In this document: positions 3,318 through 6,667 of the stretch, piece after piece | Numbering within the stretch: the first letter of the stretch is position 1 | Layout: the number at the start of each line of letters is the position of its first letter | Assembly (NCBI RefSeq): GCF_053078305.1 | Contig: NZ_CP166877.1 | Source of the DNA: a plasmid | Strand: one strand, 5' to 3' | Length of the DNA: 7,047 nt | The notes under the pieces: generated by a model | What the model was told of the DNA's origin: nothing | The model's database searches: none | Seen by the model: the letters and a program-made list of their open reading frames with translations, nothing else | Program-made: the position numbers and the translations under genes

Positions 3318-4964
3318 ATGGCTAAAGAACTAAGTGGATATGGCCCAACTGCTGGTGAGTCTATGGGGGGAACAGGGGCGAATCTGAATCAGCAAGGTGG
3401 AAATAATAATAGTAATAGTGGGGTTCACTGGGGTGGTGGCTCTGGGCATGGTAATAATGGTGGTCAGGGAAATTCAAATTCATCTGGTTCTACATCAACT
3501 GTGATGAAAACCGGTGAGTCATATCTGACTCCGTGGGGTGATGTTGTCATTAATAATGATGGCCTTCCGGTGATGAATGGTATTGTTATGACAGAAGAGA
3601 ATTCAACTCTGGTTGATAATCCATTTGGAGGGGTCTCCAGAGTTCTTAATTCTTTAATTAGTGATATGCCATCACTTTTTGCAGAAAGCTCAGGAAATAA
3701 CAACAATAACACTGCTTCAGTTAATACTGCACCAACGAATGCTCAGGTCAGTGATATGGATAAGAGTTCGAAGGTGGTGGGTAATGTAATTAATGAAAAA
3801 CAAAAGCAGAAGAATAAAATTGCTACACAGATTAGTGAAAAACAGAAGAAAATAGAGGAGATGAAAAAAGTATTCAAGCATCATTCTTATCATGGTATCA
3901 CTGATCTTGAGAGGGATGTTGATGAGTTGCAAAAAAAATCAAATCAGCTTGATGCAGATATTAGCAAACTTAATTCTTATAAAAATACATTGCAAAGTAA
4001 AATTGGTGATGTGAATAAACAGAAGGAAGCTGAAGAAAAGGCTCGTGAAAATGCAGAGGTCGCTGAACATGAAACTCTTAATGAAGAGAAACAGGCGGTG
4101 GTGGAAGCAGAGAAGCGTTTAGATGAGGCGAAAGCTGAACTGGCGAAGGCTGAAAGTGATGTACAGAGTAAGCAAGCTACTGTTTCCAGAGTTGCAGGAG
4201 AGCTTGAAAACGCTCAGAAGAGTGTTGACGTGAAGGTCACCGGATTTCCGGGATGGCGTGACGTTCAGAAAAAACTACAGCGTCAGCTTGAAGCTAAGCA
4301 GGCTGAGTACTCCGCAGTTGAAAATGAACTTAAGAATGCTGTTAGTTTCAGGGATGGCAAGGCTGCTGAGGTAAAAGAGGCAGAGCAGAAATTAAAAGAA
4401 GCTCAGGATGCTCTTGAAAAGAGCCAGATAAAAGATGCTGTTGATACTATGGTTGGGTTTTATCAATATATAACCGAACAATATGGAGAAAAATACGCAA
4501 AAATTGCTCAGGATTTAGCGGAAAAGTCTAAAGGAAAGAAAATTCAAGGTGTTGATGAAGCTCTGGCAGCATTTGAAAAGTATAAAAATGTACTGGATAA
4601 GAAATTCAGTAAAGTTGATCGGGATGCTATTTTTAATGCGTTAGAGTCTGTTACTTATGATGAGTGGGCAAAGCATCTAGAAAAGATCTCTAAGGCTCTT
4701 AAGGTTACCGGATATTTGTCTTTCGGGAATGATGTATGGGATGGTACCCGGAAGGGATTAGAAACAGGAGACTGGAGGCCTTTATTTGTCACTCTGGAGA
4801 AGAGTGCGGTAGATTTCGGAGTGGCAAAAATTGTGGCATTAATGTTCAGTTTTATTGCTGGTGCTCCTCTTGGTTTCTGGGGGATTGCTATTATCACTGG
4901 TATTGTTTCTTCTTACATAGGGGATGATGAGCTGAACAAACTTAATGAGTTGTTAGGGATTTAA
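3318..4964 (+). CDS. cka: Pore-forming colicin of the E1/K/5/10 family; length and organisation best fit colicin K
   Basis: 548-aa ORF with AAGAGG SD 5 nt upstream. It has the three expected parts: a Gly/Asn/Ser-rich low-complexity N-terminal translocation domain, a long Lys/Glu-rich coiled-coil central region, and a C-terminal channel domain closely resembling the colicin E1 pore domain as I recall it ([59 protein letters not shown], then the hydrophobic hairpin [33 protein letters not shown]). Colicin K is 548 aa; the specific K assignment is from memory. Confidence 0.92.
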
Positions 4965-5251
4965 TATCTCTTTAGAGTGTAATATATGAAACTTGGCAAT
5001 CCTACTGGGATTGCCATTGCCAGGTAAAGTAAATAAAAAAGGTTGTATGAGTACCAAGGCTCTTTTTTTATGTTTGTCGTCTTTTGTATAAAAGAAAATA
5101 TCGTTAGTTTTGAATATGGGTATAGTAATACATGTATTGATGCAAAAAATATAAAAGCTAGAGATATATCATTGTTATAGTTAAGTGTTAAATATAATAA
5201 CCATGGCAGAAGTGATTCAGGTAAATTATGTAGGTAGTATTTTAGATACAT
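4961..5251 (-). CDS. cki: Colicin immunity protein (pore-former type, integral membrane)
   Basis: 96-aa ORF convergent with the colicin gene. It is very hydrophobic and AT-rich with about three predicted transmembrane segments ([12 protein letters not shown]..., [16 protein letters not shown]..., [23 protein letters not shown]). Position and opposite orientation between colicin and lysis genes are typical of pore-forming colicin immunity genes. Its stop overlaps the colicin stop in TTAA (4961-4964). Confidence 0.85.
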
Positions 5252-5275
5252 AATTTTTTCTTTTGTTGGAGGTGT

Positions 5276-5407
5276 ATGAAAATAGTGCTTTTTCTAATTA
5301 CAATATTATCCTTGTCAGGATGTCAAGCAAACTATATTCGTGATGTACAAGGAGGAACCGTTGCGCCATCTTCGTCTTCTGAACTGACGGGGATCGCGGT
5401 TCAGTAG
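5276..5407 (+). CDS. ckl: Colicin lysis (release) lipoprotein
   Basis: Not in the ORF track because it is short. Manual translation gives [43 protein letters not shown] (43 aa): signal peptide, lipobox LSG-C, and the conserved mature motif [11 protein letters not shown] typical of colicin lysis proteins. GGAGG lies just upstream. Confidence 0.85.
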
Positions 5408-5415
5408 AAAAGATC

Positions 5416-5441
5416 AAAGGATCTCTTGAGATCCTTTTTTT
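5416..5441 (+). terminator. Rho-independent terminator-like hairpin plus T-run at the end of the colicin operon
   Basis: AAAGGATCTC-TT-GAGATCCTTT inverted repeat followed by TTTTTTT, 9 nt after the lysis gene stop. The same motif occurs at the equivalent place in pMB1/pBR322. It overlaps the RNAII promoter -35. Confidence 0.5.
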
Positions 5442-5454
5442 CTGCGCGTAATCT
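5426..5454 (+). promoter_or_regulatory. RNAII (replication primer) promoter: -35 TTGAGA (5426-5431), -10 TAATCT (5449-5454)
   Basis: Matches the ColE1/pMB1 RNAII promoter context (TTGAGATCCTTTTTTTCTGCGCGTAATCTGCTGC), with a 17-bp spacer. Confidence 0.7.
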
Positions 5455-5467
5455 GCTGCCTGTAAAC

Positions 5468-5573
5468 GAAAAAACCCGCCTTGTGGCGGGTTCTTCCGTC
5501 CGATCAGAAGTCTTCGACCTCTTCTAATCGGCGGTGGTAACTGGCTATCGCAGAGCACAGGTACCTAAATTGT
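5468..5573 (-). ncRNA. RNAI antisense copy-number control RNA
   Basis: The reverse complement reads ACAAUUUAGGUACCUGUGCUCUGCGAUAGCCAGUUACC..CCGAUUAGAAGAGGUCGAAGACUUCUGAUCGG..AACCCGCCACAAGGCGGGUUUUUU. This gives three stem-loops and a terminal hairpin plus U-run, homologous in layout to pMB1 RNAI but with different stem and loop sequences. Confidence 0.8.
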
Positions 5574-5579
5574 CCTTCT

Positions 5580-5609
5580 AGTGTAGTCAAAATCAGACTG
5601 ATACTTCAA
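5580..5609 (-). promoter_or_regulatory. RNAI promoter (minus strand: -35 TTGAAG = RC of 5604-5609; -10 TACACT = RC of 5580-5585)
   Basis: Conserved with the pMB1 RNAI promoter (TTGAAG ... CTACACTAGAAGGACA) and correctly spaced from the inferred RNAI 5' end at about 5573. Confidence 0.65.
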
Positions 5610-6039
5610 GAACTCTGTTACCAACTTATAAATCTCGCTCTGCTAACCCGGTTACCAATGGCTGCTGCCAGTGGCGTTAAGTCGTGTCTTTTCCGGGTTG
5701 GACCCAAGAGAACAGTTACCGGAGAAGGCGCAGCAGTCGGGCTGAACGGGGGGTTCCTGCATACAGCCCGGCCCGGAGCGAACTGCCTAAGTCGCCCCGA
5801 GATACCAGAAGACGTGAGCTATGAGAAAGCGCCACGTGTCCCGCAAGGGAGAAAGGCGGAAAAGGTATCCGGTAATCGATATGGCGGGAACGTGGGGGCG
5901 CAGGAGGGAGCGATTCACCGGAAACGGTGATGATCTTTAAGCCACGTCGGGTTTCGCCACCGCTGGCGGATTTCATGGTTGAGCCGTAAGGCTCCCACAG
6001 ATGCACCGAAAAAGTGTCTGTTTTGTGAAGTCCGTCAGG

Positions 6040-6100
6040 GGGGCGGAGCCTATGGAAAAAGCGCCTCCGGCGCGGCCTTTTCCGGGGTTTTTGTTTTTTG
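6040..6100 (+). other. oriV: RNAII/DNA transition region of the ColE1-type origin
   Basis: GGGGGGCGGAGCCTATGGAAAAAGCGCC...GGCCTTTTCCGG is homologous to the pMB1 region containing the RNase H processing and DNA-synthesis start site. The exact switch point is not determinable from sequence alone. Confidence 0.5.
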
Positions 6101-6249
6101 CGCACATGTTCTTTCCCGGGTTATCCCCGGATTCTGTGGATAACGGGGTCACCGCCTTTGAGAAAGGAGAGTCCGCTCGCCGCAGCCGAACGACCGAGCG
6201 CAGCGAGTCAGTGAGCGAGGAAGCGGAAGAGCACCGGAAGCGGCATTTT

Positions 6250-6420
6250 CTCCTTACGCATCTGTGCGGCATTTCACACCCGACATGGCGCATTTTTCAT
6301 ACTATCTACACTGATGCCACATGATTAAGCCAGTATACACTCCGCTATCGCTACGTGACTGGGTCATGGCTGCGCCCCGACACCCGCTAAAACCCGCTGA
6401 CGCGCCCTGACGGGCTTGTC
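6250..6420 (-). other. oriT / bom region with a conserved ColE1-type nick site (minus strand CTGG|CTTA; nick between 6330 and 6329)
   Basis: TAAGCCAGTATACACTCCGCTATCGCTACGTGACTGGGTCATGGCTGCGCCCCGACACCCGC...GACGGGCTTGTCTGCTCCCGGCATCCG is near-identical to the pBR322 bom segment as recalled. The nick position is placed by homology to the ColE1 nic site as I remember it. Confidence 0.6.
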
Positions 6421-6475: not shown

Positions 6476-6667
6476 TCAGAGGTTTTCACCGTCATCCCCG
6501 AAGCGTGCGAGGCAGCTGCGGTAAAGCTCGTCGGCGTGGTCGTGAAGCGCTTCGCAGATGTCAGCCTGGTCGTCGGCGTCCAGTTCATTCAGTTTTTCCA
6601 GCAGGGTCAGCGTCTGGCTTCTGATGAAGCGGGCCATGTTAAGGGCGGTTTTTTCCTGTTTAGTCAC
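6476..6667 (-). CDS. rop: Rop/Rom (RNA one modulator; RNAI-RNAII kissing-complex stabiliser)
   Basis: 63 codons ending ...TKQEKTALNMARFIRSQTLTLLEKLNELDADDQADICEALHDHADELYRSCLARFGDDGENL, near-identical to ColE1/pBR322 Rop. The start appears to be GTG (RC of 6665-6667) at the position of the ATG in pBR322. The ORF-track entry 6476..6907 is an artefactual N-terminal extension. Confidence 0.9.
   Translation of the reverse strand: MTKQEKTALNMARFIRSQTLTLLEKLNELDADDQADICEALHDHADELYRSCLARFGDDGENL

Follow-up and report, generated by a model that had tools for sequence, protein, structure and literature searches.

Replicons of the ColE1 type require no plasmid-encoded initiator protein and depend on the DNA polymerase I, RNase H and RNA polymerase of the host. 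In ColE1 the G-run of the pre-primer RNAII pairs with a C-run of the template to form a persistent RNA-DNA hybrid, and many members of the type, though not all, additionally encode Rop (Rom), which stabilises the kissing complex between RNAII and the antisense RNAI. According to the ColE1 model the loops of both RNAs kiss, Rop stabilises this contact, and the full duplex alters the folding of RNAII such that neither a persistent hybrid nor an RNase H-generated primer arises and DNA polymerase I does not start (PMC8683028). ColE1-like plasmids have also been the subject of large surveys (PMC8683028). Antisense control in ColE1-type plasmids, the diversity of RNAI alleles and the part their loops play in incompatibility have been known since the 1980s, and the replicon described here adds little to the basic biology of the system.

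The plasmid and its replication-control module

The stretch of DNA analysed here (in the following “the window”, 7,047 nucleotides) is a rotated copy of NZ_CP046541.1 (pFHI_NMBU_10_02), a circular colicin K plasmid of 7047 bp from E. coli of human faecal origin (Norway). Both sequences share 99.3% identity with 49 substitutions and no gaps. MOB-suite assigns the twin plasmid to ColRNAI_rep_cluster_1857 and to MOBP. None of the 49 substitutions lies within positions 5426-5609. Ten of them are grouped within 37 nt (6283-6319) between the origin and rop. Neither PLSDB nor the complete E. coli genomes contain an exact copy of the whole window.

Besides mbeA-D and exc2 the window contains the colicin K gene cka (3318-4964), an immunity gene (4961-5251, minus strand), a lysis gene (5276-5407) and rop/rom (6476-6667, minus strand). 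The product of the latter, which the twin record lists as Rop family protein, consists of 63 aa and is 96.8% identical to Rop of ColE1 and 98.4% identical to Rop of pO111_5. An NCBIfam scan of Cki, the colicin, Rop and the lysis protein gave no useful family matches.

The colicin corresponds to colicin K up to about residue 450, while over residues 451-500 its identity to the pColK-K235 colicin drops to 60%. The immunity protein shares 68.8% identity with Cki, and its residues 33-95 share 90.5% with the colicin 10 immunity protein Cti. Only one PLSDB record encodes this exact protein. Judging from these identities the block (4650-5251) looks like a chimera of colicin K and colicin 10, the immunity specificity of which is probably altered.

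No Rep gene is listed for the twin by PLSDB or evident among the open reading frames of the window, and the RNAI/RNAII origin is the sole replicon detectable on the 7-kb circular plasmid. In RefSeq a short open reading frame that covers or immediately follows the RNAI/RNAII overlap is named “replication initiation protein”, both in the window (approximately 5455-5625) and in ColE1 (784-942) and pN10b (5607-5750). As ColE1-type replicons require no plasmid initiator, this open reading frame is probably a spurious call propagated by annotation.

We consider the region to be the replication-control module of a functional theta replicon of the ColE1 type which carries a natural mosaic RNAI allele on a pColK backbone, and assign a probability of roughly 0.88 to this reading. 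Every functional sequence element of ColE1 is present and conserved, and activity and transcript ends are presumed to correspond to those of ColE1. RNAI is predicted to be antisense to the 5'-terminal part of RNAII and fully contained in it, both being transcribed from convergent promoters; primer transcripts of the type comprise roughly 550-600 nt.

The RNAII promoter (5426-5454, plus strand) is composed of the -35 hexamer TTGAGA (5426-5431), a 17-nt spacer and the -10 hexamer TAATCT (5449-5454), its activity being presumed by homology. The RNAI promoter on the minus strand (5580-5609) shows the -35 hexamer TTGAAG (5609-5604), an 18-nt spacer and the -10 hexamer TACACT (5585-5580). The hexamers of both promoters are identical in all ten aligned replicons including ColE1, pColK-K235 and CloDF13.

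A generic sigma-70 promoter scan of the window found no site. The RNAII promoter was missed because only three of the six bases of its -10 hexamer match the consensus. This null result was set aside, since the same hexamers occur in ColE1 itself and their eight consensus matches out of twelve fall below the cut-off of the tool.

The RNAII pre-primer is predicted to extend over approximately 597 nt from G5462 to the A-run of the origin (5462-6060, plus strand), both ends being placed by homology. In an alignment of the RNAII bodies of six replicons (the window, ColE1, CloDF13, pColK-K235, pO111_5 and pFHI_NMBU_10_04) a run of six G (5748-5753) is conserved with one substitution in CloDF13. The origin block CAGGGGGGCGGAGCCTATGGAAAAA (6037-6060) is near-invariant in the same six replicons, with one substitution in CloDF13 and one gap in pColK-K235. 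Its A-run (6056-6060) matches the site at which RNase H cuts and DNA synthesis starts in ColE1, and presumably marks the transition point in the window as well. A segment of 42 nt (5971-6012) is shared with CloDF13, pO111_5 and pFHI_NMBU_10_04 and absent from ColE1 and pColK-K235, so that RNAII comprises about 597 nt instead of about 555.

RNAI is the sole Rfam family detected in the window. The RF00106 hit on the minus strand (5466-5572) covers the full model and reaches 53.4 bits (E = 6.6e-08; gathering score 47). The corresponding scores are 73.8 bits for ColE1, 77.4 for pColK and 82.8 for CloDF13, and the lower score of the window is due to its longer stem-loop 2 (SL2) loop and its divergent stems. 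A 114-nt RNA of the minus strand folds into three hairpins with -50.3 kcal/mol compared to a shuffle mean of -28.3 kcal/mol (z = -6.4), and none of 200 shuffled sequences folded as stably.

RNAI itself was placed at 5462-5573 (minus strand, approximately 112 nt) by alignment with RNAI of ColE1 and is complementary over its full length to the 5'-terminal part of RNAII; antisense RNAs of the type comprise about 100-110 nt. Its stem-loop 1 (SL1, 5536-5565) exposes the 7-nt loop CUGCGAU. SL2 (5500-5531) consists of an 11-bp stem (CCGAUUAGAAG/CUUCUGAUCGG) and the 10-nt loop AGGUCGAAGA. Stem-loop 3 (SL3), including the terminator (5466-5499), shows a 15-bp stem, the 4-nt loop ACAA and a U-run.

The first-pass annotation had proposed a ColE1-type RNAI/RNAII overlap with the three-stem-loop layout and the promoter elements retained, which agrees with the Rfam hit, the fold and the promoter alignment. 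Its limits (5462-5609) are exact, as 5462 is the RNAII start by ColE1 homology and 5609 the outermost base of the RNAI -35 hexamer, and the SL2 sequence it gave was recovered unchanged.

RNAalifold on a MAFFT alignment of 11 RNAI alleles revealed compensatory pairs in SL1 and SL3, six pairs being changed on both sides. SL2 was not recovered from this alignment because its sequences are too divergent to align, and its structure was taken exclusively from the individual folds.

With 10 and 4 nt, respectively, the loops of SL2 and SL3 deviate from the classical 7-nt kissing loops recognised by Rop. Since only SL1 has a loop of canonical length, one may speculate that SL3 acts mainly as terminator and that specificity resides in SL1 and SL2. 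Owing to the non-canonical loops of SL2 and SL3 the relative contribution of each hairpin may also differ from that in ColE1. Furthermore, the summed length of the RNAI loops has been found to correlate with copy number, as measured without Rop (PMC9458437). Taking this correlation and the unusual loop lengths into account, copy number and Rop dependence of the allele may differ from those of ColE1 as well.

Replication control in the window would thus proceed as in ColE1. RNAII would be transcribed rightwards from about 5462 and form a persistent hybrid with the template near 6037-6060, where cleavage by RNase H would prime DNA polymerase I. RNAI would be transcribed leftwards from about 5573 to 5462, fold into its three hairpins, kiss the complementary hairpins of nascent RNAII and zip up from its 5' tail. 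This pairing, in which Rop would stabilise the kissing complex, would block primer formation and in this way set copy number and incompatibility.

Mosaic structure of the origin region

The window is 98-100% identical to pColK-K235 except for two blocks, 4650-5300 and 5450-6250. The latter block comprises the whole control region and the origin, and its identity to pColK-K235 ranges between 48 and 92% per 50-nt bin. Positions 5700-6000 share 97-100% identity with pO111_5, the cryptic plasmid p7-S1-IND-02-A, pSCU-171-3, pFHI_NMBU_10_04 and two colicin 10 plasmids. Since 5450-6250 diverges from pColK-K235 yet 5700-6000 matches these other plasmids, the pColK backbone evidently carries the origin of a different, widespread E. 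coli lineage.

As judged from the alignments, SL2, SL3 and the RNAII body belong to the lineage of the colicin D plasmids (pO111_5 type), the colicin 10 plasmids and several cryptic E. coli plasmids, and SL1 represents a variant close to that of CloDF13. We infer that the module most likely stems from a recombination event between co-resident colicin plasmids.

In the 23,411-bp sequence pN10b (NZ_JBUBMA010000003.1) a pColK unit and a pColD unit are joined with a hybrid unit, the colicin D operon of which directly follows cki. Of its three ColE1-type origins one has an RNAI of the pColK type and the other two have RNAIs of the pColD type. Either pN10b is a genuine heteromultimer or cointegrate, or co-resident plasmids were misassembled from long reads. 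As it joins pColK and pColD units, it suggests that such plasmids meet and recombine.

Near-identical RNAII bodies (97-100% over 5700-6000) together with quite different RNAI cassettes were observed in pFHI_NMBU_10_04, the RNAI loops of which read CGCAUA, CUGCAA and CUGCAA, and in the colicin 10 plasmids. Two plasmids that share the RNAII body but differ in the RNAI cassette co-reside with a replicon of the RNAI type of the window. Because the RNAII bodies are 97-100% identical while the RNAI cassettes differ, these plasmids suggest that a control cassette of about 150 bp is exchanged between colicin plasmids independently of the remaining origin. Such modular exchange of an incompatibility determinant among co-resident colicin plasmids would be of modest evolutionary interest.

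Predicted incompatibility specificity and distribution of the RNAI allele

ColE1 (NC_001371) and CloDF13 (NC_002119) served as reference records. The p15A RNAI sequence used here agrees exactly with database records. For pMB1 we used a sequence taken to be its RNAI, which differs by one base from the ColE1 record.

Loop pairing was scored as the duplex energy between the top of an RNAI hairpin and the top of a heterologous RNAII hairpin in percent of the cognate value, a crude measure that considers isolated tops and ignores kinetics and the 5' tail. The window reached 26% with ColE1, pMB1 and p15A and 25% with pColK. Clearly higher values were obtained with pO111_5 (76%), the p7 type (79%) and pRHB39-C22_5 (89%). 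Among known compatible pairs, whose groupings were taken from PMC9458437, ColE1 and p15A scored 39-46% and ColE1 and CloDF13 27%.

Based on these comparisons compatibility with pMB1/ColE1 and p15A plasmids, as the first-pass annotation had predicted, appears quite likely. The specificity of the window is probably orthogonal to those of ColE1/pMB1, p15A, CloDF13 and pColK, predicted to be the same as that of pSCU-171-3, and probably overlaps with that of pColD-type plasmids.

Natural co-residence, observed in two hosts, agrees with this prediction. FHI_NMBU_10, the host of the twin plasmid, also harbours pFHI_NMBU_10_04, a ColE1-type plasmid with an RNAII body 97-99% identical to that of the window and with all three loops different. 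Strain STEC2018-553 carries the colicin 10 plasmid pSTEC2018_553-d, the RNAI of which has the ColE1 loops and differs from ColE1 in one closing base of the SL2 stem, together with pSTEC2018_553-n, which has SL2 and SL3 of the window. The latter is a linear contig of 1448 bp with a different SL1 and thus a sibling allele; several records of this strain are 1.4-2.7 kb in size, the one examined being a linear fragment. The RNAI alleles of ColE1, pMB1 and p15A were found neither in pFHI_NMBU_10_03, _05 and _06 nor in the small plasmids of SCU-171 and S1-IND-02-A, which contain no RNAI or other alleles.

Cross-reaction with a standard vector group, most likely CloDF13 and possibly ColE1/pMB1, would be the main alternative to an orthogonal specificity. 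The SL1 loop is one base off that of CloDF13 (CUGCGAU compared to CUGCGAA) and shares its first four bases with ColE1, all ColE1-type RNAIs share an identical 3' half of the SL1 stem, and CloDF13 scored highest among the standard groups compared (35%), so that partial cross-talk is possible. It has furthermore been reported that divergence of the loop sequences is insufficient to predict compatibility and that compatibility can be directional (PMC9458437). However, SL2 and SL3 show no similarity to CloDF13 or ColE1, the naturally co-resident pairs scored only 21-24%, and ColE1 and p15A are a textbook compatible pair despite an identical SL2 loop and a higher score than that of CloDF13 with the window. 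Taking both sides into account, cross-reaction with one of these groups seems unlikely, and we retain the reading of a separate specificity shared with related colicin plasmids.

That RNAI constitutes a truly new incompatibility group found in this plasmid alone is improbable. An exact copy of the 171-nt control segment was detected in PLSDB in the twin only, followed by three records at 97% and others at 83-90%, and among 5426 complete E. coli genomes, 125 of which matched the segment, only eight did so over at least 80% of its length. Yet 109 records in these genomes matched at 90-95% identity, one genome carrying two records with the RNAI type of the window, and the 97% relatives deviate from the window in the SL1 loop only.

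Moreover, pSCU-171-3 has all three loops as well as the whole SL2 and SL3 identical to the window. SL2 and SL3 are likewise identical in pSTEC2018_553-n and p7-S1-IND-02-A, and pO111_5 of the common colicin D family deviates in a single stem base of SL3. The exact SL2 hairpin occurs in 36 PLSDB records, all from Escherichia and mostly colicin D plasmids of 6.67 kb.

Among 13 alleles the SL2 loop of the window is combined with the SL1 loops CUGCGAU, CCACUAA, CCUCCA and CUGCAAC (loops of MFE folds). The first three share the SL3 loop ACAA, and the CUGCAAC allele of pRHB39-C22_5 has GCAA instead. The exact combination of three loops is thus rare rather than unique, and by these comparisons RNAI appears as a mosaic of known modules and not as a new one.

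The proposal of a distinct specificity made in the first-pass annotation therefore holds only in part. SL2 and SL3 do differ from their counterparts in ColE1/pMB1, as claimed there and confirmed by alignment and loop comparison, and the loops are unlike those of ColE1, pMB1, p15A and CloDF13. They are, however, not peculiar to this plasmid, given the loops of pSCU-171-3 and the occurrence of SL2 and SL3 in colicin D plasmids. The loop identity with pSCU-171-3 partly corresponds to what the annotation itself had named as speaking against its proposal, which goes too far where it suggests a special new specificity.

Compared to siblings that have the same SL2, SL3 and RNAII body, the substitutions are clustered in the SL1 loop. 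We tentatively suggest, as a rather doubtful proposition, that the allele (SL1 loop CUGCGAU, 10-nt SL2 loop, 4-nt SL3 loop) may define a natural, experimentally uncharacterised ColE1-type specificity orthogonal to ColE1/pMB1, p15A, CloDF13 and RSF1030, and that the SL1 substitutions may represent an escape from incompatibility by swapping a single loop. If orthogonal to pMB1, p15A, CloDF13 and RSF1030, the replicon could provide an additional natural, Rop-containing compatible origin for constructs with multiple plasmids, which would be of modest practical value.

That the region is a decayed, non-functional remnant and the plasmid replicates by other means, as its comparatively low Rfam score and the negative promoter scan might suggest, is barely conceivable considering that it is the only detectable replicon of a plasmid whose gene table lacks a Rep gene, that all ColE1 functional elements are conserved, that many independent complete plasmids contain this module, and that the promoter hexamers equal those of ColE1, which would fail the same scan thresholds.

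Comparison with known replicons

The window shares with ColE1 and pMB1 the convergent RNAI/RNAII overlap, the promoter hexamers, a three-hairpin RNAI, the G-run, the origin block and an accessory Rop (96.8% identity). In contrast, its SL2 loop has 10 nt instead of 7 and its SL3 loop 4 nt, both hairpins being unrelated in sequence to those of ColE1 and pMB1 as well as to those of p15A, CloDF13 and pColK-K235. RNAII is longer by 42 nt, and identity drops to 64-67% over 5900-6100. The SL1 loop differs from CUGCUGA of ColE1 in three of seven positions. By its RNAI loops the window is thus predicted to have neither the ColE1/pMB1 specificity nor that of p15A, from which all three loops differ.

CloDF13 has the similar SL1 loop and the 42-nt RNAII segment in common with the window, and both fall into ColRNAI_rep_cluster_1857. 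However, only SL1 is close; SL2 and SL3 are unrelated (loops CCCC and CCCC in MFE folds), and identity across the origin is 75-84%, so that the specificity is predicted to differ from that of CloDF13 as well. The type colicin K plasmid pColK-K235 matches the window in the mob genes, exc2 and most of cka (98-100%) and differs in the control region and origin (5450-6250), in all three RNAI loops and in the block encoding the colicin C-terminus and the immunity protein.

More closely related in the control region is the colicin D plasmid pO111_5 (NC_013368.1, MOB-suite rep_cluster_2401), which together with pColD157 was among the top BLAST matches of one RNA I/II region (PMC5841774). Its SL2 is identical to that of the window, its SL3 is one stem base off, its RNAII body shares 97-100% identity over 5700-6000 and its Rop 98.4%. 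The differences comprise the SL1 loop, which is CCUCCA as in p15A, the spacer of the RNAI promoter with about 25 nt upstream, and the cargo, namely colicin D in pO111_5 and colicin K in the window. Since the SL1 loop differs, the window does not share all three hairpins of the pO111_5-type allele group and represents a sibling allele rather than the same allele.

The closest relative in terms of RNAI is the colicin K-like plasmid pSCU-171-3 (NZ_CP054366.1), with all loops and the whole SL2 and SL3 in common and 97-99% identity of the origin over 5700-6100. It differs in the 5' side of the SL1 stem and the 5' tail of RNAI and, with 8859 bp, in a canonical Cki-type immunity gene and extra cargo. 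The feature is hence an ordinary member of a thoroughly known system, located on a public, typed plasmid and built from hairpins that are common to other sequenced plasmids.
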